A DNA stretch of 43,511 nt from a virus (IMGVR_UViG_2529292919_000025), one strand, 5' to 3'; counted from the first letter of the stretch, positions 1 to 42,786 are shown. Numbers and translations are program-made. The notes: a model not told the origin generated them from the letters alone.

Positions 1-1260
1 ATGCCAAAACTCACAGATATGCAGATCCGCGCATGGATAAAGGCGGGAGACAGATTTGATGGCAAGGCAGACGGCAACGGCCTTTATATTTGCTACCCCA
101 AAAACTACACAGCCCCGTTCTGGCGATTCCGCTATAAGCTCGCAGGAAAGCAGCGGGCTATGGTTATAGGCTCTTACTCCGAACTGTCACTATCAAAAGC
201 CAGAGAAACAGCAAAAGAGCTGTCAGCCAGAGTTGCTCTTGGCTATGACGTAGCAGCAGAGAAACAGGAACGAAAAGCTGAAGCACTGGCAAAAATGGAG
301 GCTGAGAAAAACGCCATGCGTGTTTCAGATCTGGCCTCCGAATACTTCGAGCGCCAGATACTTCCGAGATGGAAACATCCCGATATCCTTCGCCGGAGAA
401 TTGATAAGGATATTAACCCCTGCATTGGGCATATGAAGGTAGAGGACGTTAAGCCACGCCACATTGACGACATGTTGAAAGGTATCGTTGACCGAGGAGC
501 ACCAACGATAGCAACAGATGTATTACGCTGGACACGCCGTATCTTTGACTACGGGATAAAACGCCACGCTCTGGAGATAAACCCTTGTTCAGCGTTTGAA
601 GTATCTGATGCTGGTGGTAAAGAGGTTTCCCGCGACCGTTGGCTAACTCGCGATGAGCTTATCAGGCTATTCGAGGCTATGCGCACCGCAAAAGGATTCA
701 GCCGCCAGAACGAACTGACATTTAAGCTATTGCTGGCACTATGCGTTCGTAAGATGGAGTTATGCGCCGCACGATGGGAAGAGTTTGATTTAGATGGTGC
801 GGTATGGCATTTGCCGGAAGAACGCAGCAAAAACGGAGACCCTATTGATATACCTCTACCTTCCCCAGCCGTTGAATGGTTGAGAGAGCTACACACCTTT
901 TCATGTAATAGCGCATGGGTGCTTCCAGCCAGGAAGATGCAAAACAGAATGATCCCACATATTCAGGAAAGCACTTTGCCCGTAGCACTGGCTAAGGTTC
1001 GCGCCGAAATGCCGGATGTGCCTAATTTCACGATTCACGACTTCCGACGCACCGCACGTACTCATTTAGCAGCGTTGGGTGTTGATCCTGTCGTGGCGGA
1101 ACGATGCCTCAATCATCGCATTAAGGGCGTAGAGGGGATTTATAACCGCCATCAGTATTTTGATGAGCGTAAAGCAGCACTGGCACAGTGGGCTGATCTG
1201 CTGGTGGCACTGGAAAGCGGAAAAGACTACAACGTAACGCCTCTCAGAAGGGCGAACTAA
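1..1260 (+). CDS. int: Tyrosine recombinase, P4-type island integrase
   Basis: 419-aa ORF starting at window base 1; C-terminal catalytic region with HDFRRTARTHL and terminal GIYNRHQY (R..H..R..Y tyrosine-recombinase pattern); N-terminal region typical of P4-family integrases. Confidence 0.85.
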   Translation: MPKLTDMQIRAWIKAGDRFDGKADGNGLYICYPKNYTAPFWRFRYKLAGKQRAMVIGSYSELSLSKARETAKELSARVALGYDVAAEKQERKAEALAKMEAEKNAMRVSDLASEYFERQILPRWKHPDILRRRIDKDINPCIGHMKVEDVKPRHIDDMLKGIVDRGAPTIATDVLRWTRRIFDYGIKRHALEINPCSAFEVSDAGGKEVSRDRWLTRDELIRLFEAMRTAKGFSRQNELTFKLLLALCVRKMELCAARWEEFDLDGAVWHLPEERSKNGDPIDIPLPSPAVEWLRELHTFSCNSAWVLPARKMQNRMIPHIQESTLPVALAKVRAEMPDVPNFTIHDFRRTARTHLAALGVDPVVAERCLNHRIKGVEGIYNRHQYFDERKAALAQWADLLVALESGKDYNVTPLRRAN

Positions 1261-1355
1261 CTGAATAGATTGAGCCTAGCTCGACGGGGCGAAAAGCGGG
1301 AAGCCTTACCGCCTGGCTCAATCACAAAATAAGGCGCAGCGTAAAAGGTGACGCA

Positions 1356-2321
1356 ATGAACGACTCTCATGAAACAACAGTGGTGCATAGAAATTTATGG
1401 CAGGAATCAGGTATTCCACCTTTGGACTACTGCACGATAGAGCGAGCATCAAAATTATTAAATTGTGAAATTGATGATATATGGCATTGGAAAGATAGAC
1501 TACATATAGACTTTTATGTCTATGCTGACTTTCTTGATTTCATTGAATCTGATGCCACCATCCACTTCAAAAAAGATGCTAATTTTATAACTGATTTATT
1601 ACTTATGTACCCAGAAGAAGTAAGGTTTACATTTCCTTTTCTTATTACCAGCGCAAGCAACGAAGTTTATATCCCAGCATCTGAAAGCGGTGCTTATGAG
1701 CTATTTTATGCACATAAACCACTGACAGTTGAAGACAGCGACAATAAAAATGTTTTTGAACAAATTGGCAAAAACTCTTTTATTGTAAGAAAATCAATTG
1801 CATGTGGATTGTTGCGTGTACGCGGTAGAACAACACGACATTATCATTCACAAGAATGTGGAGAACCATATGTGCGACTTGAAGCAACATTTGATTGTGA
1901 TCTATATAAATTCAAAATGCAAAGTTCCCAAATTCACCTGAGTAGCCTGTCAGATAAAAACATTTATATAACAAAGGCTGATTTAGAATACCTTCATGAC
2001 GCAAAGGTTAATGGAAGTTTTGACGCAGCTAAGAGCAAAAAACGATACGAAATGGCGGTAGAACAGGAACTAATACCTGAAATAAAAAATAGCAACCATA
2101 ATGCCGAGAGACATGCTGAAAACAGGGAAAAACTTTTCAAATCTGCAATATATCTTTTGTCAAAGTATCCTGATGAATGCCGTGGCAAAAAGAAAGAAAT
2201 AAGCCCTGAGAAGTGGCGGGATTGCATAGTGGCTCATAAAGACGAAATTCCACCGTTAGCAATCACAAATGAAGATGTGATTTTGAGACACTTACGTGCT
2301 GCCGCCAACGGTAAGGGGTAG
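1356..2321 (+). CDS. Hypothetical protein; AT-rich orphan island cargo gene, no recognisable motif
   Basis: 321-aa ORF, SD-like AAGGTG 5 nt upstream of ATG; visibly AT-rich compared with both flanks; stop codon TAG (2319-2321) abuts the prophage end; its probable terminator is found at 40131-40160 beyond the prophage. Confidence 0.6.
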   Translation: MNDSHETTVVHRNLWQESGIPPLDYCTIERASKLLNCEIDDIWHWKDRLHIDFYVYADFLDFIESDATIHFKKDANFITDLLLMYPEEVRFTFPFLITSASNEVYIPASESGAYELFYAHKPLTVEDSDNKNVFEQIGKNSFIVRKSIACGLLRVRGRTTRHYHSQECGEPYVRLEATFDCDLYKFKMQSSQIHLSSLSDKNIYITKADLEYLHDAKVNGSFDAAKSKKRYEMAVEQELIPEIKNSNHNAERHAENREKLFKSAIYLLSKYPDECRGKKKEISPEKWRDCIVAHKDEIPPLAITNEDVILRHLRAAANGKG

Positions 2322-2324
2322 AGT
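2319..2324. repeat. Left copy of prophage target-site duplication TAGAG(T)
   Basis: TAGAGT at 2319-2324 is identical to 40112-40117 immediately outside the other prophage end; 5-bp Mu-type duplication plus one ambiguous base. Confidence 0.55.
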
Positions 2325-2372
2325 TGATGCGCCGCGCGATAAATGCACTCTATCTTGTGCGATAAATGGCAT
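2325..2372. repeat. Prophage terminal inverted repeat, invertase-side end, with two transposase-binding-like motifs
   Basis: TGATGCGCCGCGCGATAAATGCAC...TGTGCGATAAATGGCA; the CGATAAATG motif occurs twice 23 bp apart; inverted counterpart at 40064-40111. Confidence 0.6.
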
Positions 2373-2402
2373 CCACGCGGCGTTTCATTATTTGAAAAAG
2401 AA

Positions 2403-2975
2403 TTACATTTCAGGTTGCGTTATGACAGTCCCAACAGGGTGGTAGCGGTAGATCGTTGACAGTCCAATATCATAGATAATTGCCAGCCGCTTTCTGTCAT
2501 ACCCTTTCTGGAGCAATCTTGCGATCTGCTCATGCTGCTCCTTCGTCAGTTTCGGGCGACGTCCTCCAACTCTCCCTTGTGCTCGCGCAGCAGCCAGTCC
2601 TGCCAGCGTGCGCTCAACTATCAGTTCACGCTCCATTTCTGCCAGTGCACCCATCATATGAAAAAAGAACCTTCCCATCGGAGTGCTGGTATCGATTGAA
2701 TCCGTCAGACTGCGAAAATTGACACCTTTTGCGCGTAGCTCTTCTGTGAGAGCAATGAGGTGTTTCATTCTTCTACCCAACCGATCCAGCTTCCAGACCA
2801 CCAATGTATCCCCTCTTTTAAGGCACTTTAAAGCGCGTTTCAGGCCTGGTCGTTCCGACTTGGTTCCGCTCATTTTGTCCTCAAAAATCTGTTCACATCC
2901 TGCGCACATTAATGCATTGCGTTGCAAATCTGTGTTTTGGTCATTTGCTGACACACGTATGTAGCCAATCAGCAT
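2403..2975 (-). CDS. Serine-recombinase DNA invertase, Hin/Gin/Pin/Cin family
   Basis: 190 aa; N-terminal resolvase/invertase catalytic motif (IGYIRVS...DxQ, GDTLVVWKLDRLGR) and C-terminal HTH; immediately adjacent to tail-fibre cassettes with hix/gix-like sites. Confidence 0.9.
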   Translation of the reverse strand: MLIGYIRVSANDQNTDLQRNALMCAGCEQIFEDKMSGTKSERPGLKRALKCLKRGDTLVVWKLDRLGRRMKHLIALTEELRAKGVNFRSLTDSIDTSTPMGRFFFHMMGALAEMERELIVERTLAGLAAARAQGRVGGRRPKLTKEQHEQIARLLQKGYDRKRLAIIYDIGLSTIYRYHPVGTVITQPEM

Positions 2976-3029
2976 TAAAAATACTCCCTTTTGAGTGGTT
3001 AAAGTACTGAGATAATGTGGGGAGGATTT

Positions 3030-3055
3030 GAGAGATAAACGTTGGTTTGGGGGAA
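3030..3055. other. hix/gix-like crossover site d (outer site; invertase-proximal half degenerate)
   Basis: GAGAGATAAACG-TT-GGTTTGGGGGAA; right half identical to site c. Confidence 0.55.
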
Positions 3056-3580
3056 GGCTCTGCGTTGCCCGTTGGTGTACCCGTTCCGTGGCCCTCAGCT
3101 ACACCGCCAACGGGCTGGCTGAAATGTAACGGCGCAGCATTTTCTTCTGAAGATTACCCCAAACTGGCACAGGCTTACCCCGCGAATAAATTACCGGATC
3201 TACGGGGTGAATTTATCCGTGGCTGGGATGATGGACGCGGCTTGGATGCTGGGCGTGCCTTGCTAAGTCTTCAGGATGACTCTTTTGAAGCGCACAGGCA
3301 TGAGTCCTTTTTTTATGCGGGTATTTCACGTAATGAAACCCCATTAAAAAATCTTCCAAGTTCAGACGAGATGCTGACTTTAAGTTCCACAACTAATGCC
3401 TTGTCCCCGGACGGTATTGATGCCACCAACTCGTTAATTGGTAATGACGATTACAACTGTCTTATCGAAGGGAATAAAAATAACAAACGAACAGCGACAA
3501 GACTGAGTACCAGTATTGTCGGCACAGCAGAAACACGCCCCCGCAACGTTGCATTCAATTACATCGTAAGAGCCGCATGA
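3047..3580 (+). CDS. Silent tail-fibre C-terminal cassette A (no in-frame ATG; expressed only after inversion)
   Basis: Begins with the shared GEGSALPVGVPVPWPSATPPTGWLKCNGAAFS segment and ends with the shared ETRPRNVAFNYIVRAA; track start is a TTG inside the crossover site. Confidence 0.6.
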   Translation: MGEGSALPVGVPVPWPSATPPTGWLKCNGAAFSSEDYPKLAQAYPANKLPDLRGEFIRGWDDGRGLDAGRALLSLQDDSFEAHRHESFFYAGISRNETPLKNLPSSDEMLTLSSTTNALSPDGIDATNSLIGNDDYNCLIEGNKNNKRTATRLSTSIVGTAETRPRNVAFNYIVRAA

Positions 3581-3599
3581 AAACGTTGGTTTGGGGGAA
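3574..3599. other. hix/gix-like crossover site c
   Basis: CGCATGAAAACG-TT-GGTTTGGGGGAA; exact reverse complement of site b (5135-5160). Confidence 0.6.
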
Positions 3600-4067
3600 G
3601 GCTCTGCACTGCCCGTTGGTGTGCCTGTTCCATGGCCCTCAGCCACACCACCAACGGGCTGGCTGAAATGTAACGGTGCAGCATTTTCTTCTGAAATGTA
3701 CCCCAATCTGGCAAAGGCCTACCCCACCAATAAATTACCGGATTTACGCGGTGAATTTATCCGTGGCTGGGATGATGGGCGAGGAATTGATGCGGCACGC
3801 GCTTTATTGAGCATTCAAAACGGGATGTTGGAAAAACACCGCCATATTGTTGTAGCTAACGATGGATATGACACAAAAGATGAATGGGAGTTGGCTACGA
3901 TTTTCAAAAAAACATATACACAAGGCAGGGGGCTTGATGCCACAAATACAGGAGGGAGTTTGATTCCATCACCAACGCTTCATTCACGAGGAAGTATTGG
4001 TAACACAGGTGGTAGTGAAACCCGCCCCCGCAATATTGCATTTAACTATATCGTGAGGGCGGCTTAG
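3591..4067 (+). CDS. Silent tail-fibre C-terminal cassette B
   Basis: Same conserved N- and C-terminal boundary segments as cassette A, different middle; no ATG start. Confidence 0.6.
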   Translation: MGEGSALPVGVPVPWPSATPPTGWLKCNGAAFSSEMYPNLAKAYPTNKLPDLRGEFIRGWDDGRGIDAARALLSIQNGMLEKHRHIVVANDGYDTKDEWELATIFKKTYTQGRGLDATNTGGSLIPSPTLHSRGSIGNTGGSETRPRNIAFNYIVRAA

Positions 4068-4073
4068 TTATAT

Positions 4074-4685
4074 TCAACTGGCTGCTGCCAGTGGTATTTC
4101 CGGCAAGTTGATATCTGGTACCATGTTTATATCCATTGCGTTCAGCGCGTCTATATAATCCAGCACGGCATTAAGCCGGGTGGTTTCTGCCTGCGTCAAC
4201 TTCCGCCCGGCCTGCAACTTCAACTGAATCAGACTTATGGAAGCCATTGCCGCATCAGCCAGTGACTGGCGCTTGGTTTCTGCCGCTTCTACTGCGGCAC
4301 GATGTTGTGCCTCAGTATCTGTCACCCATTTTTCACCATCCCATTTATCGTATGGTGTTAACGGGGCGATAGTGGTTGTAGTTTTCGGGTAGTCACCCAG
4401 CGCCGTGATTTCTTCGGTGTTTCCCGTGTCAGTGCTATAGACGGTTTCACCACGATGGTCTGGCGCATACTCCCATGAACTTAAATTCTCCGAACGGCGG
4501 ATAGCATAGCCCGCTTTATGTGCGCCCGGGGCATCTAAACAGGAATTTGCCGGAATACCGACACCCACAGCAAGATATTCAGTTGATTCGGAAATATATT
4601 CCCGTGTCTCACCATCATAGTTATAAACGACGATGTTTCCTGCCTGTACGGCAATAAGGTCATCATTTAATATCGCGTTATTCAT
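4074..4685 (-). CDS. Tail-fibre assembly protein (Tfa/U-like chaperone)
   Basis: 203 aa; start ATG overlaps the stop of cassette C (TAATG); typical Tfa-like sequence and position after a tail-fibre C-terminal segment. Confidence 0.75.
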   Translation of the reverse strand: MNNAILNDDLIAVQAGNIVVYNYDGETREYISESTEYLAVGVGIPANSCLDAPGAHKAGYAIRRSENLSSWEYAPDHRGETVYSTDTGNTEEITALGDYPKTTTTIAPLTPYDKWDGEKWVTDTEAQHRAAVEAAETKRQSLADAAMASISLIQLKLQAGRKLTQAETTRLNAVLDYIDALNAMDINMVPDINLPEIPLAAAS

Positions 4686-5143
4686 TATGCGGTTCTCACA
4701 ATATAATTGAAGGCAATATTGCGTGGGCGGTTTTCATTCCCATCTGAGGATTCCGTTCTGTATTGACTGGTAAATCTACCGTTAATTGCACCTTGCCGGA
4801 CGGCGTTATCTGTCGACAACAGACTATCCCCTCTTTTGTCATTTGGCACCAGTACCGTGTTATCCCACGCATCCCATGACCGAATATTATGATAATGACT
4901 TCCTGTTAACCACCCCTGCATGCTTAAGATGCCCCTTCCGGCATCCACCCCGCGCCCATCATCCCAGCCACGGATAAACTCACCGCGTAAATCAGGTAAT
5001 TTTAACGTTGGGTAAACCTTTGCCAGATTTGGGTACATTTCAGAAGAAAATGCTGCACCGTTACATTTCAGCCAGCCCGTTGGTGGTGTGGCTGAGGGCC
5101 ATGGAACAGGCACACCAACGGGCAGTGCAGAGCCTTCCCCCAA
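4685..5143 (-). CDS. Silent tail-fibre C-terminal cassette C (translationally coupled to the assembly gene)
   Basis: Shared N-terminal GEGSALPVG... and C-terminal RPRNIAFNYIVRTA; lies directly downstream of the expressed fibre gene on the same strand. Confidence 0.6.
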   Translation of the reverse strand: MGEGSALPVGVPVPWPSATPPTGWLKCNGAAFSSEMYPNLAKVYPTLKLPDLRGEFIRGWDDGRGVDAGRGILSMQGWLTGSHYHNIRSWDAWDNTVLVPNDKRGDSLLSTDNAVRQGAINGRFTSQYRTESSDGNENRPRNIAFNYIVRTA

Positions 5144-5160
5144 ACCAACGTTTTCATGCG
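5135..5160. other. hix/gix-like crossover site b
   Basis: TTCCCCCAAACC-AA-CGTTTTCATGCG; resembles hixL/gix consensus as I recall it (TTCTTGAAAACCAAGGTTTTTGATAA). Confidence 0.6.
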
Positions 5161-6650
5161 GCTCTTACGATGTAATTAAATGCAACGTTGCGAGGGCGAG
5201 TTTCTGTACCTACATTTCCACTAATTTCACCAAACCGTTTTACATTACGAGAGCTAATGGCTCGTAGTGAGGAAGGCACATTAAGACCGGGTTCGTCCGT
5301 TTTAACTATTCCCCCGTCACCGTATGTAGCCAGTATTCCTGGGTTTACTCCTTCCCGTGCACTTCCTGCGGCGAGTCCGTCCCCTGTCCATAATTCCATA
5401 TAGTGTGCATGGTCCAAAATTGTGTGTGGCTGCCAATTAAGCAAAGCGCGACCAGTATCAATCCCGCGACCGTCATCCCAGCCACGAATAAATTCACCGC
5501 GTAAATCAGGCAATTTATTGGTCGGGTAAGCCTTTGCCAGTTCCGGGTATTCTTCAGCAGAAAAAGCCGCACCGTTGCATTTCAGCCACCCCGTTGGCGG
5601 CGTGGCTGAAGGCCATGGAACGGGCACACCAACGGGCAGCGCCGAGCCTTCCCCTAAACCAAGGTAATTGAGGACTTCTTTTATACTGCCCATAGCGATA
5701 ATAGCGCGACCAATAGCTGTAAGGGTTGTCAGTGCTGCGCGGTCTGCTCCGGTAAAATAAGGCAACCGATCTGCTGCAGTGGCAAGTCCTGCCAGAGCAG
5801 TGAGCGTGGCATCTGCCGGTTGTTTTCCGTTTGCCAGATCGTATGCAGCCTTGACCGCTTTCGGTGTGGCGGCCAGTATTTCAGACGTGCTGTTGATGTC
5901 ACTGCTCAATTGTACGGTGCCTTTTGCCGTCAGCGAGGCAGCAGGCACTCCCGTTATCTGACTCCACGGGTGAGTGTGGCTGACGGGCGCCTTGCCGGCT
6001 GCAAGGTCGTATGCAGCCTTGACCGCCTTCGGTGTGGCGGCCAGTATTTCAGATTGACTGTCCGTGGCGCTGCTCAGTTGTACGGTGCCTTTTGCCGTCA
6101 GTGAAGCCGCAGGCACTCCCGTTATCTGACTCCACGGGTGAGTGTGGCTGGCAGGCGCCTTGCCGGCTGCAAGGTCGTATGCAGCCTTGACCGCCTTCGG
6201 CGTGGCAGCCTCAGTTTCTGATTGACTGTCCGTGGCGCTGCTCAGTTGTACGGTGCCTTTTGCCGTCAGCGAGGCAGCAGGCACTCCCGTTATCTGACTC
6301 CACGGGTGAGTATGGCTGACGGGGGCCTTGCCGGCAGCCAGGTCATATGCAGCCTTGACGGCCTTTGGTGTGGCGGCCAGCGTTTCAGAGGTGCTGTTGG
6401 TGGCACTGCTCAGTTGGGTGAACCCCTTAGCTGTCAGTGTCGCGTCCGGGTGGTTACGGGAACGTACGTGTTCAGCCAGTGACTGTGCGGCTTCCTCCGT
6501 TTTTTTCTTCAGCCATTTCGTCCTGTTTGCCAGTTGCCGGGGGGCTCGATTTGATATCCCGTCTGCACCACCCAGAACCGGATCTGATGTCTCCAGTTGA
6601 TAGATATTTTCTTCCCACTTTTCTGTTTCATTCAGGTTTCCCATAATCAA
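5154..6650 (-). CDS. Tail fibre protein (constant N-terminal part fused to currently expressed cassette D)
   Basis: 498 aa; N-terminal tail-fibre anchor region, 56-aa shaft repeats, then ...NYLGLGEGSALPVG crossover segment and a variable C-terminus ending ETRPRNVAFNYIVRAA. Confidence 0.85.
   Translation of the reverse strand: MIMGNLNETEKWEENIYQLETSDPVLGGADGISNRAPRQLANRTKWLKKKTEEAAQSLAEHVRSRNHPDATLTAKGFTQLSSATNSTSETLAATPKAVKAAYDLAAGKAPVSHTHPWSQITGVPAASLTAKGTVQLSSATDSQSETEAATPKAVKAAYDLAAGKAPASHTHPWSQITGVPAASLTAKGTVQLSSATDSQSEILAATPKAVKAAYDLAAGKAPVSHTHPWSQITGVPAASLTAKGTVQLSSDINSTSEILAATPKAVKAAYDLANGKQPADATLTALAGLATAADRLPYFTGADRAALTTLTAIGRAIIAMGSIKEVLNYLGLGEGSALPVGVPVPWPSATPPTGWLKCNGAAFSAEEYPELAKAYPTNKLPDLRGEFIRGWDDGRGIDTGRALLNWQPHTILDHAHYMELWTGDGLAAGSAREGVNPGILATYGDGGIVKTDEPGLNVPSSLRAISSRNVKRFGEISGNVGTETRPRNVAFNYIVRAA
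5649..5674. other. hix/gix-like crossover site a (inside the expressed fibre gene; fibre-constant-side half degenerate)
   Basis: TTCCCCTAAACC-AA-GGTAATTGAGGA; left half matches site b; encodes the LGLGEG junction. Confidence 0.55.
5811..6443. repeat. Tandem ~168-bp coding repeats (about 3.5 copies) in the tail-fibre shaft
   Basis: Protein repeat TAKGTVQLSSATDSQSE..ATPKAVKAAYDLAAGKAP.SHTHPWSQITGVPAASL recurs; accounts for the repetitive antisense ORFs at 5820-6482. Confidence 0.6.
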
Positions 6651-28024: not shown

Positions 28025-28376
28025 TTAAAGCCCCATCGCAACAGCCAGGCAGACCGCTGCAACAATCAGTGCACGGCGGATTAACGCAGCAGAAAACACC
28101 AGGTGAAGGCCGGTCTGTACCGGGAAACGCCCTTCAGCCATCAGCCTGTCGTCATGTTTCAGGTACTGACCGGGACGGGCTTTGGGGAAGAGCGAACGGT
28201 CAAGCCAGTAACCCAGCACTGCTGCCAGCGTGATAAGTGCCAGCTTGTAGATCACAACAGGCAATTGCTGTGGCGAGACCAGAGCGATGATGCCCAGCAA
28301 CAGCACTGAGGTCAGCAGCCAGCCGCTGAGGCGAGGTTTTTTAACAGGGGGAATGAATTTTTTCAGGTTTTTCATG
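28025..28376 (-). CDS. Holin-like membrane protein (two predicted TM segments); start trimmed to ATG at 28376
   Basis: ATG at 28376 preceded by GAGGAG; conserved promoter-like motif lies inside the longer track ORF (to 28423). Confidence 0.5.
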
Positions 28377-28505
28377 TGTGTCTCCTCGTTTGGTGGAGAC
28401 AGCATCACAAATACAGGGCGCAAAGGATTTTAAAGCGCGTTAAGAGAGCCGGGGATACGGGATGTGCAGGATAAACGATGAATTATTCACAGAGGAGAAT
28501 ACGAT
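28377..28505. promoter_or_regulatory. Divergent promoter region: late (lysis) promoter candidate and promoter of the P-loop gene
   Basis: TTTAAAATC-N23-CTGTCTCC on the minus strand 18 nt upstream of the holin-like ATG, matching the motif upstream of the protease/scaffold gene. Confidence 0.4.
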
Positions 28506-29234
28506 ATGACGCAGACACTGAATCCGGTCATCACTGTCACCGTGTCCGGTCCTGTGGGCAGCGGTAAAAGTTACATATTGGCGCAGATAGAGGAAGTGGT
28601 GAAACAGGAATTCGGAAACAGCGTCATTGTCGACGCCGCAGACGTGGACGGTGAGCGCCGTATGAGTGGGGATGATCTGAGCACATGGCAGAAACCACGG
28701 GCTGGCACAGTGATCAGGCTGGAGGAATACACGGGACAGGGCCTGTTGTCATACGGCGAGGAGCGTATCTGTCGGACGAATGAGCTGCTGGATGTTATAT
28801 GCCCCACGGGCCGGCAACCCTGGATACTGCCCGATGCACTGCATGCCACCATTGCGGCACTGATGACAGTTTACGATCAGGAGCTGCTCATGAAGGAGTT
28901 ACGTAAACTCACCGGTCAGCCAACAGAATGTTGTTCGTCTCCGAAGTACGGCAAACAGGAACACATCCCGATTAACCAGCCTCCCCGGTTCTTCGACGAA
29001 TACCTTCTGACACCGGAAAATAAAGCTGAGCATGAAGAGATCAAAGCGGCGTTGTTCCGGGAAATCAGGAAGATTGCTGAAATGCAACTGGAGGGCGGGC
29101 TGGACAGAGTGATGGCGAGAGGAGAATGGGAATCGCTGTTTGAAAGAACTTCCCCGGAATTACTTCCCCTCGCACTGGCCATCGGGATTATGCAGACAGC
29201 GGATAAACCTCACTTACGTTCATTAAACACGTAA
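28506..29234 (+). CDS. P-loop NTPase/kinase-like protein, unknown function
   Basis: 242 aa; Walker A GPVGSGKS at residues 15-22, candidate Walker B VIVD; SD GAGGAG 9 nt upstream; on the strand opposite to the late operon. Confidence 0.6.
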   Translation: MTQTLNPVITVTVSGPVGSGKSYILAQIEEVVKQEFGNSVIVDAADVDGERRMSGDDLSTWQKPRAGTVIRLEEYTGQGLLSYGEERICRTNELLDVICPTGRQPWILPDALHATIAALMTVYDQELLMKELRKLTGQPTECCSSPKYGKQEHIPINQPPRFFDEYLLTPENKAEHEEIKAALFREIRKIAEMQLEGGLDRVMARGEWESLFERTSPELLPLALAIGIMQTADKPHLRSLNT

Positions 29235-29614
29235 CTCATAATCCGGGATACGCGTTCAGCGATGACTGCATTTTCACCGGTTTTTACTGCATCCAGAAGT
29301 GACTCTTTAAATGGTGCGGGCCGGGGCTGCAGAAGGGTCGGCGTGGCATTGAGCAGACGGAGCGTTTTTTCCGTGAGGACGACATCAGCCGCTCCCACAG
29401 CCAGCAACTGAGAGTAACGAATATAGCTGTTATCCCGAAGCCATATCAGCGTATCAATAAAATACCGGCACTTTTTCTGGTCGTGATCAACCTGGTCCGG
29501 AATATCGAAAAAACCAGAATAAATCAAAACCTGAGGTGCCGGATGCGTGTTCAGTAATCGGCAGAATATTTTGCCGGTGAGTGCATAAAAATCATCATTT
29601 AAGGAGTGCATCAT
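29210..29614 (-). CDS. Hypothetical protein
   Basis: 134-aa ORF convergent with and overlapping the P-loop gene by 25 nt; no motif recognised. Confidence 0.4.
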   Translation of the reverse strand: MMHSLNDDFYALTGKIFCRLLNTHPAPQVLIYSGFFDIPDQVDHDQKKCRYFIDTLIWLRDNSYIRYSQLLAVGAADVVLTEKTLRLLNATPTLLQPRPAPFKESLLDAVKTGENAVIAERVSRIMSYVFNERK

Positions 29615-29828
29615 GAATCCCCGATTAACGTTAACAGAACATCAGCGCCGTGCTGAAGCAGTGAACAATGTTCTGGAAGATATTATCCGGTTACATCGCG
29701 GAGAACTGAGTGTCTGTCGTGCCGCTTTTCATTTTCAGGGAATACAAAAGCAGTTTGATACTTCTGTTTTTGCAGAAGGTATTACTTATGCCCTGGACCG
29801 GATAAGGTCAGAAAATCGCCCCGGATAA
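29613..29828 (+). CDS. Hypothetical small protein
   Basis: 71 aa; strong SD AAGGAG 6 nt upstream of ATG; followed by a GC-rich hairpin (29885-29912) and then the methyltransferase gene. Confidence 0.5.
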   Translation: MNPRLTLTEHQRRAEAVNNVLEDIIRLHRGELSVCRAAFHFQGIQKQFDTSVFAEGITYALDRIRSENRPG

Positions 29829-30018
29829 TCCCTAAACCACATTAACAGAAATCCCGCCATCCCTGCCGCATCATGAAAGAACGACCAGCCCGGCACCCGA
29901 AAGCCGGGCTGGTCATCGCCCCACAGGAATGCGCTGTGAGCCGACCAAGGTTCAGTCAGTCTCGCGAGACCTGACCAGACTGCCATATTTTTTAATAATT
30001 GTAAAAGGCTTACAGATT

Positions 30019-30783
30019 ATGAAAATGCAGACATTACCCATCGTGCCGTGGATTGGTGGCAAACGCCGCCTTGCAAAACACATTCTGCCGCTGTTTCCGG
30101 CGCATGAATGTTATGTGGAGCCGTTTTGTGGGGCAGCAGCGCTCTATTTTCTTAAGACACCCGGCAAGATCGAAGTCATCAATGATATCAACGGTGAACT
30201 GGTGAATCTGTACCGGGTGGTAAAGCATCACCTGGAAGAATTTGTCCGCCAGTTCAAATGGGCGCTGGTCAGCCGTCAGATCTACAAATGGCTGCAGATC
30301 ACCCCGGAAGAAACACTGACGGATATCCAGCGTGCGGCACGGTTCTACTACCTTCAGAAGCAGGCGTTTGGCGGCAAGGTGGCAGAGCACAGCTTCGGTA
30401 CCTCCACCACATCCCCGCCACGCTTCAACCTGCTGCGTATTGAAGAAGAACTGTCAGCGGCACACCTGCGGCTTTCCAGAACAGTCATAGAACACATGGA
30501 CTGGCAACAGTGCATTGAGCGTTATGATCGTCCGCACACGCTGTTCTACTGCGACCCACCGTACCTGGGTACGGAAGGCTATGGTGTGGATTTTCCTGAA
30601 GGGAACTACTCGCGGCTGGCAGAGCTGGCCCGGTGCATCAGAGGAAAAATGATAATTTCGGTGAACGACATCCCGCAGATGCGCGAGGTGTTCACTGGAC
30701 TGAACATACAGACAGTGAATATCAACTACAGTCTGGCGGGTAAACCCACGCCGCGCCGTGAACTGCTAATCTGCAACTTCTGA
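30019..30783 (+). CDS. Orphan DNA adenine methyltransferase (Dam-like, DPPY motif)
   Basis: N-terminal VPWIGGKRRL, FxGxAA (EPFCGAAA) and catalytic DPPY (FYCDPPYLGTEG); no adjacent restriction endonuclease gene visible. Confidence 0.8.
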   Translation: MKMQTLPIVPWIGGKRRLAKHILPLFPAHECYVEPFCGAAALYFLKTPGKIEVINDINGELVNLYRVVKHHLEEFVRQFKWALVSRQIYKWLQITPEETLTDIQRAARFYYLQKQAFGGKVAEHSFGTSTTSPPRFNLLRIEEELSAAHLRLSRTVIEHMDWQQCIERYDRPHTLFYCDPPYLGTEGYGVDFPEGNYSRLAELARCIRGKMIISVNDIPQMREVFTGLNIQTVNINYSLAGKPTPRRELLICNF

Positions 30784-30790
30784 AACAAAA

Positions 30791-30813
30791 CCGGAAAGCA
30801 CAATGCTTTCCGG
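30791..30813 (-). terminator. Rho-independent terminator candidate downstream of the repressor gene
   Basis: Perfect hairpin CCGGAAAGC-acaat-GCTTTCCGG followed on the minus strand by TTTTGTTTC. Confidence 0.5.
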
Positions 30814-30899
30814 TAAACCAAACAACTTCCACTATGTCACTGGCGATGTTTTCTGAAAGCATCCAGATCAACCACCTGTCCTTTGTGTCCGGGTCAGTA

Positions 30900-31256
30900 T
30901 CAGCCTGCGATTTTTCCTGGTTTTGGCTGAGTATAGAATCGCCCAATCTCAAGAAATGAGCGTTGTTGGTCTGGTGTCATGTCGTCAAAAGTATCTATTA
31001 GTTTTTGTTTTTCTGGGGAAATTTGATTCTGGTTTCTAGTCATACCATCTGTGCTCATTCCAGTGAGCAACCAATTTACATCAACATTAAACTCTTGATG
31101 CATCTTTAACAGAAACTCCCCTCCAGGCATCGCCTTTCCATTTTCAATCTGACTGATACCACCATTAGAAATACCTAAACGAGCTGCAAATTCTCTCTGG
31201 TTCAACCCTGCTTTCTTCCTCACAGAAATAACGCGCTCTCCTATATCTTTGCTCAT
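30900..31256 (-). CDS. Prophage repressor, XRE-family HTH
   Basis: 118 aa; HTH QREFAARLGISNGGISQIENGK; divergent from the Cro-like gene with a palindromic operator between them. Confidence 0.75.
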   Translation of the reverse strand: MSKDIGERVISVRKKAGLNQREFAARLGISNGGISQIENGKAMPGGEFLLKMHQEFNVDVNWLLTGMSTDGMTRNQNQISPEKQKLIDTFDDMTPDQQRSFLEIGRFYTQPKPGKIAG

Positions 31257-31280
31257 AAAAGTGAATCTCTATCTTGATAT

Positions 31281-31296
31281 GCTCATAATTATGAGC
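31281..31296. promoter_or_regulatory. Operator candidate: perfect 16-bp palindrome GCTCATAATTATGAGC
   Basis: Lies in the 93-bp divergent intergenic region; an extra half-site GCTCATAA (31251-31258) overlaps the repressor start codon. Confidence 0.5.
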
Positions 31297-31349
31297 AATA
31301 ATCTAACACATATAAGGCAAACATCATTGCATCAACAAAGGAGACAACG

Positions 31350-31538
31350 ATGACTGCAGAACAAGTCAAAGCTCTCTTCCGCCAGCGCGGGATCACTTTC
31401 ACCCGCTGGGCAGAAGAAAACGGCTACAACCGCAATGAGGTATACCGCGTTCTCAACGGGCAGACCAAAGCCCGTTACGGTAAATCCCATGAAATCGCCG
31501 TGAAGTTGGGACTGAAATCAACAGCTCAGGCGGCCTAA
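31350..31538 (+). CDS. Cro/Ner-position small HTH DNA-binding protein
   Basis: 62 aa, first gene of the rightward early operon, HTH-like ITFTRWAEENGYNRNEVYRVLNG; does not carry the WPxRY signature I associate with Mu Ner. Confidence 0.6.
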   Translation: MTAEQVKALFRQRGITFTRWAEENGYNRNEVYRVLNGQTKARYGKSHEIAVKLGLKSTAQAA

Positions 31539-33162: not shown

Positions 33163-34932
33163 ATGACCCCGGCACTGACTGAAAAACTGGTTGAAACAGC
33201 CCGCGCGGCACGTGACGCGGGGCATGGTAAACGCGGTGCAATATACGACGCTGCCTGTGCTGAACTTGGCATGTCCCGCGCCACTCTGCTGCGCAGGCTG
33301 AAGGAGGTCTCTGTGACTGATAAACGCAAAAAACGCGCCGATGCCGGGCGCAGCGCCCTGACCCGCGACGAAGCCGCGCTGATATCTGCCACACTGCGTG
33401 AGGCCACCCGCAAGAACGGTAAGCGTCTCTATTCCATCGCGGATGCAGTGGAAACCCTGCGGGCTAACGGCTTTATATCCGCAGGCAGAACAGATGAAAC
33501 CACCGGTGAGTTTTTCCCGTTGTCCGAAGATGCCATCAGCCGAGCCCTGCGTAACTATGGCCTGCACCCGGAACAACTGGATGCCCCTGCGCCGCATACC
33601 GAAGTGGCCAGTCTGCATCCCAATCATGTCTGGCAGATTGATGCCTCGCTCTGCACGCTTTACTACCTGAGTAATGGACACAAAGGACTGCAGGTGATGG
33701 ACAGCGCGAAGTTCTACAAGAACAAGCCCGCTAACCTTGCCCGTATCGCCAGTGACCGCGTGTGGAGTTACGAGATTACCGACCATGCCAGCGGCTGGAT
33801 TTACGTTGAGTATGTGACGGGTGCGGAATCCGGTGAGAACCTGTGTTCTGTGCTTATCAACGCCATGCAGGAGCGTGGCGGCGCAGACGTGCTGCACGGC
33901 GTGCCGAAAATACTCTATCTCGACCCCGGCTCGGCAAACACCGCGGGTATGACGAAAAACATGTGCCGCTCACTGGGCATCGACCTGATAGCACACAAGC
34001 CGCATAACGCCCGCGCCACCGGACAGGTGGAAAAGGCGCGTGACATTATCGAACGCAAGCTGGAGCCGGGTCTGAAGTTCCGGCCGGTTCACAGTCTGGA
34101 AGAACTCAACGCGCTGGCCGCGAAATGGCGCAGCCACTTTAACGCCACGGCTGTTCACAGCCGCCACGGTAAAACCCGCACGGATATCTGGCTGAAGATT
34201 ACTGCTGAGCAGCTGAAAAAAGCGCCTTCCGTTGAGGTATGCCGTGAACTGGCTGTGGCGACACCAGAACTCCGCAAAGTCACGCCAAAACTTCGTGTCT
34301 CGTTCCGGGGCACTGAATTTGACGTATCAACGGTACCGGGCGTACTGGTCGGTGAAAAACTGATGATTACCCGTAACCCGTGGCGCAGCGATGTGGCACA
34401 GGTGGTTCTGACCGGTGAGGACGGCCACGAGGCGTTCTTCCTGGTCGAAGAGGTCAGAAAGAACGAGTTTGGCTTTGCTGAAAGCGCGGCGGTATTTGGC
34501 GAAAGTTACAAAGCCCTGCCGGAAACCCCGGCGCAGATGGCGGCAAAAGAAACCGAAGCGCTGGTCACCGGTACAGACAACGCCGCAGATGCAGCTGCCG
34601 CACGCAAGGCGAAGGCGCTGCCGTTCGGCGGGCGGCTTGACCCATATAAACATATTGATGACGCCACACTTCCGGCCTGTATACCGAAGCGAGGTCAGGC
34701 CTCTGACGTACGCGGGCTGCGCACTGAACAACGTCCCATGACTCATGTGGAGGCCGCGAAAGCCCTGCGCGATAAGTTCAGCGCCGACGGCCTTACCTGG
34801 ACGCCGGAACATTACCGCCAGTTAACGGCACAGTATCCGGACGGCGTACCGGAAGCCGCACTGGATGAAGTCATGGCCACGCTGACCACGCCGGCCCGCA
34901 GCAGCGTTATCAGCATTGTTAACGGCAACTGA
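33163..34932 (+). CDS. DDE transposase (MuA-like function)
   Basis: 589 aa; N-terminal HTH, central integrase-core-like region with candidate catalytic D residues (HVWQIDAS, ILYLDPGSANT) and a downstream E; followed by AAA+ ATPase, as in transposable phages. Confidence 0.75.
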   Translation: MTPALTEKLVETARAARDAGHGKRGAIYDAACAELGMSRATLLRRLKEVSVTDKRKKRADAGRSALTRDEAALISATLREATRKNGKRLYSIADAVETLRANGFISAGRTDETTGEFFPLSEDAISRALRNYGLHPEQLDAPAPHTEVASLHPNHVWQIDASLCTLYYLSNGHKGLQVMDSAKFYKNKPANLARIASDRVWSYEITDHASGWIYVEYVTGAESGENLCSVLINAMQERGGADVLHGVPKILYLDPGSANTAGMTKNMCRSLGIDLIAHKPHNARATGQVEKARDIIERKLEPGLKFRPVHSLEELNALAAKWRSHFNATAVHSRHGKTRTDIWLKITAEQLKKAPSVEVCRELAVATPELRKVTPKLRVSFRGTEFDVSTVPGVLVGEKLMITRNPWRSDVAQVVLTGEDGHEAFFLVEEVRKNEFGFAESAAVFGESYKALPETPAQMAAKETEALVTGTDNAADAAAARKAKALPFGGRLDPYKHIDDATLPACIPKRGQASDVRGLRTEQRPMTHVEAAKALRDKFSADGLTWTPEHYRQLTAQYPDGVPEAALDEVMATLTTPARSSVISIVNGN

Positions 34933-37036: not shown

Positions 37037-37231
37037 ATGATATTTAAATGTATTCAGTGCGAGAGGGATATAACAGCCCTGCGTTTTCACAGCGCCATCG
37101 CCGTGATGTCCGGTAAGTACCACGTACCTGCAGTACGTGTCACCCTGGTCTGCCCGTACTGCAGCCAGCATTTTTCGGCAGACGTGCCCGTCATGGAATT
37201 CTCCCGCCCTGACAGGGAGGACTCGCAATGA
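37037..37231 (+). CDS. Zinc-ribbon small protein
   Basis: 64 aa with CIQC...CPYC pair of CxxC motifs. Confidence 0.5.
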   Translation: MIFKCIQCERDITALRFHSAIAVMSGKYHVPAVRVTLVCPYCSQHFSADVPVMEFSRPDREDSQ

Positions 37232-39148: not shown

Positions 39149-39590
39149 ACAACGTCTTATCCAGCTCATTCATATTGCCCGTAATGAACTGGGTATGGAT
39201 GAAGACACCTACCGCCAGATGTTACAGGGGCTGACCGGTAAAGCCTCAACCAAAGGAATGGATACCACACAACTAAACTGCGTGCTGGAATCCATGAAAA
39301 GGAAAGGCTTTCGCGTTAAGCCTGCCGGAAAAGCCAGCTCAGGTTTACCGCTGGATAACCATCCGCAGTCCAGGAAAATCCGTGCGCTATGGCTTGAAAT
39401 GGCTGCTGCCGGCATTGTTCGTGACCGTTCAGAAAATGCATTAGCGCGGTGGATCAAGCGGGAAACGGGCATCAGCGCCCTGCGCTGGCTCAATACTGAA
39501 CAGGCAAGCAGTGTTATTGAGAAACTGAAGAAGTGGCAGCACAGAGCTGCGGGAGTAAAACATGAGCGACCTGAATCAGTTTCGAAGTAA
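39138..39590 (+). CDS. gemA: GemA-like protein (Mu gp16 family)
   Basis: ATG at 39138 preceded by AAAGGAG; GemA-like sequence and position immediately before Mor. Confidence 0.6.
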   Translation: MMTKQRLIQLIHIARNELGMDEDTYRQMLQGLTGKASTKGMDTTQLNCVLESMKRKGFRVKPAGKASSGLPLDNHPQSRKIRALWLEMAAAGIVRDRSENALARWIKRETGISALRWLNTEQASSVIEKLKKWQHRAAGVKHERPESVSK

Positions 39591-39951
39591 AGGGCCGGAA
39601 CTCCTGGTGGAACTGGCACAGCATACCTCTGAGACCGTTCGCGAGATTATTGATATTGAGCCCGCAATTGCCGACCAGATTGGTCAGGCCGTCGCGAACC
39701 GCATGATGCAGGTCTGGGGCGGGCAAAACGTTTATTTCCCGATGGGCATGGTATGGAAGGTCAGTCAGCGCGACCGGGAAATCTTCAGGGAGTTTAACGG
39801 ACGTAACCACCATGAACTGGCCCGCAAATTTGGTGTTTCGCTTCAGTGGGTCTACAGCGTGGTTAAGCGGGTAAGAAAAGAAGAACTGGATCGGATGCAG
39901 GGCAAGCTATTTGCTGATGAACCCGATGTAGATACGGAGAAAAAAGAGTAA
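39562..39951 (+). CDS. mor: Mor/C-family transcription activator
   Basis: 129 aa with C-terminal HTH ELARKFGVSLQWVYSVVKR; last gene before the prophage end. Confidence 0.7.
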   Translation: MSDLNQFRSKGPELLVELAQHTSETVREIIDIEPAIADQIGQAVANRMMQVWGGQNVYFPMGMVWKVSQRDREIFREFNGRNHHELARKFGVSLQWVYSVVKRVRKEELDRMQGKLFADEPDVDTEKKE

Positions 39952-39980: not shown

Positions 39981-40117
<137 letters not shown>

Positions 40118-40130
40118 TAGCTAACTATTC

Positions 40131-40265: not shown

Positions 40266-41837
40266 TTACTGAGAGCTCAGATCAACTTTCCAGGGCAACA
40301 GATCGCGTACCCGGTTTGCCGGCCAGTCCTGGATATGTTCAATGACGTAACGCAGCCACTTTTCTGGCTCCACATTGTTCAGACGGCATGTGCCGATCAG
40401 CGAGTACAACACCGCCGCATGTTCACCACCGCTGTCGGAACCCGCGAACATCCAGTTTTTCCGGCCTACGGCCACTCCCCGTAAGGCGTTCTCTGCGATG
40501 TTGTTGTCGATTTCCACCCAGCCATTACTGCAGTACACGTTCAGTGCATCCCACTGTTTCAGCAGGTATGCGAACGCTTTTGCCGTATCTGAGTGACGCG
40601 ACAGTGTTTTCATCTGTTGCTGTATCCAGTCATACAGTGACTGCATCAGTGGCGCGGCTCTGGCTTTTCTTGCCGCCAGACGCTGTTCTGCTGAACAGCC
40701 CCGGACCTCTGCCTCGATGGCATACAGTTCACCGATACGCTGCAGGGCTTCCGTGGTGATGTAGGTGGGCGCTCTTGCATGCACATCGTGGATTTTTCTC
40801 CGGGCATGAGCCATACACGCGGCTTCCGTTATTCTGCCGGATTCGTATAACGCCCGGTAACCACCGTAAGCATCGGCCTGAAGCACACCGCTGTAACCGG
40901 CCAGGTGATTTTGTGGATGGATACCTTTCCGGTCCGGACTGTACGCGAACCAGACCGCCGGGGGCATCTGTGAACCGGCGTTACGGTCATCACGGACGTA
41001 GACCCACAGCCGGGCTGTCCGGGTTTTACCGCTGCCCGGCTCCTGGACCGGGACGGGGATATCATCAGCATGGACTTTACCGGGCATCAGCACATACTGG
41101 CGCAGGACGTCATACAGCGGCTCCAGCAGTTCAGCAACAGCACCTGTCCAGCGCCCCAGTGTGGCACGGCTCAGCTCCACTCCCTGACGACGGTATATTT
41201 CTGACTGGCGGTATAACGGCAGATGGTCTGCATATTTCCCGGTGACAACATGGGCCAGAAGCCCCGCTCCGGCATAACTGCGTGCAATGGGTTTTGAAGG
41301 TACTGGTGCCTGCACGATATGGTCGCACCGGCAACAGGCCTGTTTCGGACGTTGTGTTTCGATAACCTTAAAGGCGCTGCTGATAAGCTCCAGTTGCTCT
41401 GACACATCACATCCCAGAGAACTGAGTTCACCACCACAGGCAGGACAGCATTCCTCTTCCGGCCGGATAACCCGGGTTTCACGGGGAAGTGAGGCCGGTA
41501 ACGGTTTACGGGCTGAAGACTGGCGCAGGGCGGATGGCAGTACCGGGTCATATTGCTCACCCAGCGTTTCCGCCATTTCTTCCTGAAGTGCGCTGATTCG
41601 CTCCTGTGCTTCCTGTATCTGCCGTTCGGTTTTTGCACGAAGTTTTTCTGAGCTTTTACCGAACTGCATACGTTGCAGTTTCGCAACCAGCGCCTTCAGC
41701 CGGTTGATTTCGGAAGCATAAGCCGCCACCCGCTGTGAGAGCAGGCGGTTGTATTCAGCCATCTGGCGGATGGTGTCCTGTTGCGTCTGCAACAGTGCCC
41801 GCAGGCGGGCGTTCTCATGAGCAAGTGAGGTGTCCAT
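40266..41837 (-). CDS. tnpC: IS66-family transposase TnpC
   Basis: 523 aa, N-terminal coiled coil/leucine zipper, Cys-rich zinc-finger-like segment, IS66 transposase sequence character. Confidence 0.8.
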
Positions 41838-41856
41838 ATCCTCACTTTACAACGGG

Positions 41857-42204
41857 TTATATGCGGATTCCAGCGCGTTCCGTTCGTTTCGGGTGCTTCC
41901 AGTTGATACCTTCAAGAAGCATGGATAACTGAGCCGGAGTAAGGTGCACCTTGCCGTCACGGGTGACTGGCCAGACGAAGCGGCCCCGCTCCAGGCGTTT
42001 GGTGAAGAGGCACAGTCCGTCACTGTCAGCCCACAACACTTTTATCTGGTCACCCCGGCGTCCGCGGAAGATGAACAGGTGTCCGGAGAACGGGTCATCC
42101 TTCAGGACGTTCTGAACTTTTGATGCCAGGCCGTTAAAGCCATTTCGCATATCGGTGATACCTGCAACCAGCCAGATACGCGAACCTGCAGGGAGAGATA
42201 TCAT
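41857..42204 (-). CDS. tnpB: IS66-family TnpB (Orf2)
   Basis: 115 aa with sequence character of IS66 Orf2 proteins. Confidence 0.75.
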   Translation of the reverse strand: MISLPAGSRIWLVAGITDMRNGFNGLASKVQNVLKDDPFSGHLFIFRGRRGDQIKVLWADSDGLCLFTKRLERGRFVWPVTRDGKVHLTPAQLSMLLEGINWKHPKRTERAGIRI

Positions 42205-42366
42205 CAGTGGCTGCTCCCTTTTATTTCGCGGATAAGTGTCTGTAATAACGCCGGCGTCAGTTTACCTTTAAGCCTGAGAGTTCCGGCCGGCAGAACCAGC
42301 TCACAACACAGACTGTCGGACGGTGTATTTATCTGCTCTGGTTCCTGTGCGGGGGCCGGGATTTTA

Positions 42367-42786
42367 TTATTCCGGCTCCGGCGTTAACGTCACGGGAAGC
42401 AGTGCCGGCATATTTTTTCCGGAAGGCAGCAGGCCACCTTTCCGGTATTGATGGCGCCAGTTGAAGAGCAGGTTATCGTTGATTCCGTTTTCCCGGGCGA
42501 TCTGCGCCACACAGGCTCCGGGCTGCAGTGACTGCTCCACTAAGGCGATTTTAAACTCATAAGGGAAGTTGGGCCGCCGGGGACGTTTTTTTACCACGGG
42601 GGCTTCGGATATAACGGTGCTTTCAGGACGTACGACTGGTACCGTGGAAAATTGTCCGTAAAGGCAGGCATCAAGTTCCTGCTCCGACATGCCTGCGGGC
42701 AAAGGCCACGAAAGGCCAGCTCTCCGAAAGCGCACGAACATACTACAAACTGTTGATTTTGGTACACCCAGGCGACGCCCGGCCAC
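42367..42786 (-). CDS. tnpA: IS66-family TnpA (Orf1); true start uncertain
   Basis: C-terminal RRPNFPYEFKIALVEQSLQPGACVAQIARENGINDNLLFNWR HTH pattern. Confidence 0.6.
   Translation of the reverse strand: MAGRRLGVPKSTVCSMFVRFRRAGLSWPLPAGMSEQELDACLYGQFSTVPVVRPESTVISEAPVVKKRPRRPNFPYEFKIALVEQSLQPGACVAQIARENGINDNLLFNWRHQYRKGGLLPSGKNMPALLPVTLTPEPE

Follow-up and report, generated by a model that had tools for sequence, protein, structure and literature searches.

The viral stretch IMGVR_UViG_2529292919_000025, 43,511 nucleotides long (hereafter the window), carries in a BcepMu-like transposable prophage a DNA adenine methyltransferase of the Dam family, which is preceded by an RNA leader conserved across genera. 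The favored reading, held with moderate rather than high confidence, is that this stand-alone alpha-class enzyme is silent in the lysogen, gated by its leader, and protects phage DNA by methylation in the lytic phase, in analogy to Mom of phage Mu. The methyltransferase is no new gene; it is ordinary and already catalogued as M.EcoMIV, and since orphan phage methyltransferases are commonplace, it matters little as a gene. What is new here is its position as a syntenic fixture in enterobacterial BcepMu-like prophages, its tie to the com-dam family of Pseudomonas phage B3, and the conserved leader, which is the most interesting feature of the neighborhood.

The methyltransferase and its relatives

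30019-30783, plus strand: methyltransferase M.EcoMIV (WP_000783854.1), 254 amino acids plus stop codon, orphan alpha-class D12/Dam-family N6-adenine DNA methyltransferase

The protein belongs to PF02086 (MethyltransfD12; E 6e-29, 102 bits, cut-off 22) and passes the TIGR00571 dam subfamily model marginally (116.6 bits, cut-off 114.85). Its motifs follow the alpha-class order, with the AdoMet motif I (F36-C-G-A-A40) at the N-terminus, then the target-recognition domain, and the catalytic DPPY (residues 179-182, D179-P-P-Y182) towards the C-terminus. A preliminary description of the window had recognized a DPPY-motif adenine methyltransferase directly upstream of the repressor terminator; the reading frame, its PF02086 and TIGR00571 matches and a terminator 7 nt past the stop codon agree with it. 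The ratio of nonsynonymous to synonymous substitution rates (dN/dS) against relatives is 0.05-0.11, indicating purifying selection on the gene. The start giving 254 residues is backed by RefSeq and by the N-termini of homologs. In phage PhiKM (PQ738613, 29908-30762) the GenBank coding sequence has 284 residues and starts at an upstream ATG (window position 29929), spanning the leader. An N-terminal extension of this kind is ruled out by stop codons and frame-breaking indels in relatives, and because the leader region is noncoding, the 284-residue annotation is probably an over-extension.

The window protein is 100% identical to M.EcoMIV (EC958_1101) of Escherichia coli ST131 strain EC958, encoded in prophage Phi2. 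In EC958 this prophage lies between aroA and ycaL with its genes in identical order; the window copy occupies another chromosomal site, in an island that has an integrase on one side and IS66 on the other. M.EcoMIV was published as a D12-class type II orphan, identical in >80 genomes and lacking any characterized homolog above 65% identity (Forde et al., 2015; PMC4659465). The link to the B3 com-dam family and the leader are not described in that paper. M.EcoMIV is a REBASE entry and is annotated in hundreds of genomes; a literature search on its name found no reported specificity.

Homology to the transposable phage B3 gives the enzyme a more informative context. The methyltransferase is 64% identical over its full length (E 3e-124) to B3 ORF48, annotated as 'Dam modification methylase', which identifies the two proteins, from their sequences, as orthologs. 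The start of ORF48 overlaps ORF47, the Com translational regulator (PF10122, E 4e-22), and the B3 com-methyltransferase module lies inside the late structural operon. In Burkholderia phage phi1026b, gp26 is 65% identical to the window methyltransferase and follows the lysis cassette. These late-operon and lysis-cassette contexts point to a late, Mom-like role. Mu-like prophages are known to use adenine methyltransferases instead of Mom, and B3 ORF47/48 were cited as a Com homolog with a methyltransferase replacing Mom, its activity undemonstrated (Drozdz et al., 2012; PMC3299994).

The window and B3 share the target-recognition motif, the leader family and a transposable phage without Mom. They differ in that the B3 leader precedes com, which overlaps the methyltransferase start, whereas the window leader abuts the methyltransferase and no com gene (PF10122) lies immediately upstream. 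They differ also in that the B3 module is within the late operon, whereas the window gene stands between the immunity region and the late operon and is divergent from the latter. The link to the B3 family provides a concrete and testable functional hypothesis.

The resemblance to Mu com-mom would be one of function and not of descent. Both concern adenine modification of DNA by a transposable phage, silent in the lysogen, both phages have a Gin-type invertase near the same genome end, and in both an mRNA structure hiding the start region gates translation (established for Mu, PMC6483171; predicted for the window leader). Mom has an acyltransferase fold unrelated to methyltransferases (PMC3299994), however, and its map position differs; the window leader would be a three-element switch, whereas Mu has a Com hairpin and a translation-inhibition structure.

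A second group of methyltransferases that replace Mom, Hia5, Hin1523 and Nma1821 of FluMu-type prophages, are likewise alpha-class, Dam-related, DPPY-bearing and silent in the host, but they are non-specific adenine methyltransferases (PMC3299994) and constitute a separate sequence family. B3 ORF48 was noted as lying outside the Hia5 relatives (Drozdz et al., 2012; PMC3299994). As an inferred proxy for the Hia5/Hin1523 family, SuMu_53, the com-linked methyltransferase of Haemophilus phage SuMu, was compared with the window protein; the match is at motif level only (E 0.02), and SuMu_53 scores 23 bits against PF02086, compared with 102 for the window protein. Membership in the Hia5 family was rejected on this comparison. 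Identity with M.EcoGI/M.EcoGII was rejected too, those being beta-class enzymes of 349 residues.

One genome per species was scanned, giving 80 loci that encode related methyltransferases. Seventeen of these homologs reach 80% identity or more; they come from 10 other enterobacterial genera (Trabulsiella, Buttiauxella, Pantoea, Brenneria, Photorhabdus, Xenorhabdus, Symbiopectobacterium, Citrobacter, Serratia, and Erwinia), and every one occupies this slot of a BcepMu-like prophage and points the same way. The order in 17 of 17 is holin (minus strand), methyltransferase (plus), immunity region, and transposase (plus). BcepMu itself has no methyltransferase in this slot, and its gp18 was considered as a hidden methyltransferase and rejected. 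Three genes separate holin and leader in the window:

28506-29234, plus strand: p242, variable cargo with a Walker-A-like GPVGSGKS and weak AAA matches
29210-29614, minus strand: p134, variable cargo, PHROG family of unknown function
29613-29828, plus strand: p71, variable cargo, PHROG family of unknown function

In the 17 loci of other species that keep the methyltransferase, p134 and p71 are unmatched throughout and p242 is weakly matched in two, while the Klebsiella element KP12 keeps the methyltransferase beside unrelated genes. Because the methyltransferase is fixed and syntenic while its neighbors vary, the comparison identifies it as a true orphan, with a selected stand-alone function in the enterobacterial branch of BcepMu-like phages. 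The earlier claim that it has no partner endonuclease holds: no nuclease family was recognized nearby, and the neighbors are exchanged in relatives.

The conserved leader

29919-30026, plus strand: conserved structured 5' leader, about 108 nt, matched by covariance model R1 (71.3 bits, E 6e-17)
29922-29926, plus strand: leader element 1, CACAG, pairing with 29934-29938 to form hairpin H2 (CACAG/CUGUG)
29934-29942, plus strand: leader element 2, the anti-Shine-Dalgarno (anti-SD) element CUGUGAGCC, pairing with either element 1 (H2) or element 3
29959-29970, plus strand: palindrome around which the long central hairpin H3, between elements 2 and 3, is built
30007-30015, plus strand: leader element 3, GGCUUACAG, holding the Shine-Dalgarno (SD) GG and ending 3 nt before the AUG (ATG at 30019)

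Conservation of the 150 bp preceding the methyltransferase ATG extends across genera and follows a pattern that is typical of structured RNA. Covariation was counted in a set of 31 diverse leaders, where the H2 pairs are formed in 95.9% of cells and three of the five change on both sides. The helix between the anti-SD element and element 3 (SD helix) is paired in 83.5% of cells in these leaders, and in 20-46% when its partner is slid; over all counts the figures are 81-84% as against 20-47% for slid controls. It shows double changes in six of nine pairs in the model-fitted alignment. Whole helices are rebuilt in some lineages, as CUGCAAGUC:GGCUUGCAG in Iodobacter and Chromobacterium, UGAAUUAGCC:GGCAAUUCA in Paraburkholderia, GUGAGCC:GGCUCAC in Cupriavidus, and CGUAGGC:GCCUACG in a metagenome-assembled genome of Sinobacteraceae. 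An alignment-free duplex search, run on each sequence separately, chose the same anti-SD element in about 27 of the 31 leaders. The leader is by these comparisons a conserved element whose pairing partners covary. The single-sequence minimum free energy (MFE) fold of the window leader differs from the consensus helix, and the ON (SD region released) and OFF (SD region occluded) forms lie within 3.6 kcal/mol of the MFE. In the Brenneria and Iodobacter leaders the MFE structure is the consensus fold.

The covariance model R1, built on the occluded form, matches the coding strand exactly once in each locus where it is found: 67 of the 80 genome loci, KP12, phi1026b, and B3. The leader is distributed over beta- and gammaproteobacterial prophages, including BcepMu-type and B3-type transposable phages and phi1026b-type siphoviruses. 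The match ends at the methyltransferase start codon in com-less loci and at the com start codon in com-linked loci, including B3 (28.3 bits, E 1e-4). R1 has no match in BcepMu and SuMu, and the leader has no match in Rfam. A Com-family reading frame is directly upstream of the homolog in at least 10 of the 80 loci. Paludibacterium denitrificans and Methylophaga thiooxydans have multiple near-identical copies of a leader-com-methyltransferase module, which fits multi-copy transposable prophages.

Com is known to melt the translation-inhibition structure, and its published target motif is CC(N)2-3GAG (PMC6483171). In many leaders the corresponding sequence reads CCUGUGAG, and in the window GCGCUGUGAG. 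It is tentatively proposed that the leader is a widely distributed, previously undescribed translational RNA switch that gates either a Mom-analogous methyltransferase or Com, the enzyme being of non-GATC and possibly relaxed specificity. The leader, simple in design with three mutable elements, is a candidate for a new cis-regulatory RNA. It also offers an entry point to the question of how phages hold potentially toxic DNA-modifying enzymes off until lysis.

Proposed role and competing explanations

The signals that flank the gene on its repressor and late-operon sides enter into the proposed mechanism:

29883-29914, minus strand: hairpin H1, a 12-bp GC-rich perfect inverted repeat followed by a T-rich run on the minus strand
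30814-30790, minus strand: intrinsic terminator of the repressor transcript, an 11-bp stem followed by TTTGTTT, 7 nt past the methyltransferase stop codon
30900-31256, minus strand: CI-type helix-turn-helix repressor (HTH_3 E 4.6e-15, Phage_CI_repr E 1.8e-5), convergent with the methyltransferase

H1 (-36.3 kcal/mol, z -3.8) shows compensatory changes across genera and is probably a second minus-strand terminator, which would shield the late (lysis and structural) operon from read-through on the repressor side. In the lysogen the methyltransferase would be off: published work found no transcript, and the two minus-strand terminators would bracket the gene against transcription from the repressor side. 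Any leader transcript could fold so that the SD region GGCUUACAG is paired with CUGUGAGCC and the ribosome-binding site hidden, whereas the competing hairpin H2 would release it. During lytic development the gene would be transcribed and the leader opened by some factor or condition. Before packaging, the enzyme would then methylate the phage DNA as it replicates, probably at a target other than canonical GATC, and progeny DNA would be shielded from restriction in the next host. Such a Mom analog would be located between the immunity and late regions and not at the invertase end. A broad anti-restriction enzyme of this kind, if real, would affect how the phage, and any DNA moved by it, cross restriction barriers.

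No plus-strand terminator follows the methyltransferase stop codon (30784-31256), where the sole hairpin is the minus-strand terminator of the repressor. A transcript of the methyltransferase gene would therefore continue into the repressor gene in antisense and could possibly reinforce lytic commitment.

Several points weigh against this reading. The model-fitted leader alignment is biased towards the modeled structure. Constrained folding of the window leader gives -23.5 kcal/mol for OFF, -26.1 for ON, and -27.1 for the MFE, and thermodynamics do not guarantee occlusion. The window prophage is without Com, and its leader is without the CC of CC(N)2-3GAG. Motif I is FxGxA and not FxGxG, the alanine being conserved across the clade. 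For M.EcoMIV and homologs above 65% identity, the literature holds no activity, target or lytic-phase expression (PMC4659465). Even so, each competing explanation is less well supported than the Mom-analog reading.

The best placed of these, still improbable, takes the enzyme for a true Dam of GATC specificity, topping up GATC methylation of rapidly replicating phage DNA or regulating promoters or transposition epigenetically. Host Dam acts in this manner on mom, IS10, and P1 packaging. The marginal pass of TIGR00571 and the nearest solved structures, which are the GATC enzymes DpnM and EcoDam, would fit, and the window enzyme shares with the Dam proteins of E. coli and T4 and with DpnM the Pfam family, the motif order and the catalytic DPPY. 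However, identity to EcoDam is 27% only, and the score against the Dam equivalog NF008152 is 67 bits, with a cut-off of 441. In HMMER and MAFFT alignments, the EcoDam residues that we take, from the structures of Horton et al., to read GATC are all replaced (K9 by P, N120 by G, L122 by K, R124 by A, and P134 by S), so that neither K9 nor the GATC-contacting beta-hairpin is conserved. The motif found instead, AFGGKVxxxxFGTxTTSxP, is conserved within the family, in E. coli as well as in Pseudomonas and Burkholderia. GATC is also depleted in the prophage (2325-40112), with 90 sites observed and 174.5 expected under a maximal-order Markov model (ratio 0.52), and is absent from the operator region (31257-31349), and the E. 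coli host already supplies Dam. With the reading residues replaced, the equivalog score low and GATC depleted, GATC specificity is judged unlikely, although Forde et al. predicted M.EcoMIV to be a 'Dam homolog' (PMC4659465). The term 'Dam-like' of the preliminary description is apt for family and fold, but not for the reading of GATC. CTAG is nearly absent from the prophage (1 against 9.9 expected).

An epigenetic or lysogenic-conversion regulator, made in the lysogen and altering host or prophage expression or 'vaccinating' the host chromosome, has a slim chance. In its favor are the immunity region next to the gene, a weak sigma-70-like site (29971-29999), and the fact that orphan methyltransferases can be regulators (PMC5778455). 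Yet the identical gene of the EC958 lysogen was untranscribed by reverse transcription PCR (RT-PCR), and single-molecule real-time (SMRT) sequencing found no methylation motif attributable to it (PMC4659465), which is in effect the lysogen methylome check that had been proposed. Moreover, the leader can sequester the SD region, and the B3 and phi1026b homologs are embedded in late operons. The earlier suggestion had left protection and epigenetic self-regulation side by side; protection gains indirect support from the B3 ortholog and the SD-hiding leader, whereas self-regulation in the lysogen is disfavored by the RT-PCR and SMRT results (PMC4659465).

The chance is similarly slim that the upstream region consists of DNA-level signals (promoter, operator or activator sites) or of a decaying com remnant, and is no RNA switch. 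The core of H3 is a DNA palindrome whose center precedes a possible start site by about 44 bp, resembling the Mor/C sites in Mu, the outer H3 and SD sequences are nearly invariant, and in com-linked loci the leader precedes com. However, the arms of the SD helix, about 70 nt apart, covary, and many of its G-U pairs are compatible with the sense strand only, as expected of RNA. A coding role is excluded by the stop codons and by indels of lengths that are not multiples of three in relatives. The palindrome GTCTCGCGAGAC was rejected as a shared Mor-type site: further copies in the window do not exceed chance, and none lies near the late promoter.

That the enzyme is the modification half of a restriction-modification or defense module, with p242 (P-loop-like), p134, and p71 as effector, is very improbable: the best PADLOC model is labeled 'Type II methyltransferase', p242 has its Walker-A-like motif and weak AAA matches, and restriction enzymes are frequently missed by sequence detection, but no nuclease signature is adjacent, the three neighbors are not co-inherited with the methyltransferase, as seen in the 17 loci and in KP12, and members of the methyltransferase family turn up by themselves, repeatedly, in phage contexts that are unrelated.

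The three neighbors gave no nuclease or informative family match in Pfam, NCBIfam and PADLOC, only PHROG families of unknown function, and sequence searches of the PDB gave no relative. AlphaFold single-sequence models of p242 and p134 (mean predicted local distance difference test scores, pLDDT, 38.8 and 45.1) were too poor for use. Direct repeats of 24 nt, 75% identical, flank p71 (29616-29639 and 29827-29850) and suggest inserted cargo.

The prophage and its other features

2325-40112: complete transposable prophage of the BcepMu type (Bcepmuvirus), 37,788 bp long, ends TG...CA, 6-bp target duplication TAGAGT
2403-2975, minus strand: Gin-like serine invertase (Resolvase and HTH_7 matches), 76% identical to Mu Gin, stop codon 78 bp from the prophage end
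28025-28375, minus strand: holin, first gene of the late lysis/structural operon (PF13272, E 9e-42; RefSeq annotation of the same prophage)
31274-31302, plus strand: early promoter-like site TTGATA-17-AATAAT, between repressor and gp16-family gene
31350-31538, plus strand: BcepMu gp16-family small DNA-binding protein, first early gene (TIGR04111, E 3e-28)
33163-34932, plus strand: DDE transposase, early operon
39562-39951, plus strand: Mor, early operon

The prophage ends follow from comparing the window with independent insertions elsewhere in E. coli (junctions of EC958 and E-1246). The prophage starts with TGATG and ends with AATCA, and the direct repeat TAGAGT is at 2319-2324 and 40113-40118. 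Assignment to Bcepmuvirus follows from the gp16 gene, the DDE transposase with an ExeA-type partner, Mor, the inversion of early relative to late genes, and the TG..CA ends with duplication. The early operon on the plus strand has the order gp16-family protein, IclR-like, DUF3102, DDE transposase, ExeA-like, Gam, and Mor. The late operon (lysis, terminase, head, and tail genes, minus strand) runs leftward from the holin to the tail fibers, and the invertible tail-fiber region adjoins the invertase, ahead of the tail genes.

The 3-kb region 28400-31400 is 99.2% identical to Escherichia phage PhiKM. It is found at least partly in 633 of 5426 complete E. coli genomes, and at least 80% of it in 461; about one in ten complete E. 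coli genomes carries the prophage, and the pandemic ST131 lineage is among the carriers.

The preliminary description had placed the invertase stop 78 bp from the prophage end and had seen no room there for a com-mom-like module. The mapped ends and searches of the whole window confirm it: tblastn with Mu Mom, Mu Com, B3 Com, and three other Com proteins gave no Mom or Com match in the window (best E above 0.04), neither Pfam nor tblastn found a com gene (PF10122) in it, and the invertase end has no Mom or Com homolog. Phages of the BcepMu type normally lack mom. The prophage has a single zinc-ribbon-like candidate for a factor that binds RNA or DNA, encoded by a reading frame of 64 residues in the early operon (37037-37231, plus strand; two CxxC pairs, phrog_3401 of unknown function); as a substitute for Com this four-cysteine protein was rejected, having no Com profile match in Pfam.

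In the predicted early promoter, the spacer separating the -35 (TTGATA) and -10 (AATAAT) hexamers is taken up exactly by a perfect 18-bp palindrome, TGCTCATAATTATGAGCA (31280-31297), which is likely to be the repressor operator. The motif GGATTTTAAAGCGCGTTAAGAG (28425-28446) adjoins the holin; on the minus strand it reads TTAACGCGCTTTAAAATCC, with a TAAAAT -10-like hexamer, and it is conserved across genera. This site is probably a late, Mor-dependent promoter. In related loci the motif is found about 190 bp upstream of the methyltransferase, and in Photorhabdus and Xenorhabdus it is only about 240 bp from the divergent methyltransferase.

The prophage sits in a mobile island and not in the core chromosome, with a tyrosine integrase at 1-1260 and a complete IS66 (TnpA, TnpB, TnpC) at 40266-42786. 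In a search with window positions 1-6000, which did not treat the flank on its own, every top-ranked E. coli match starts at 2325 or later.

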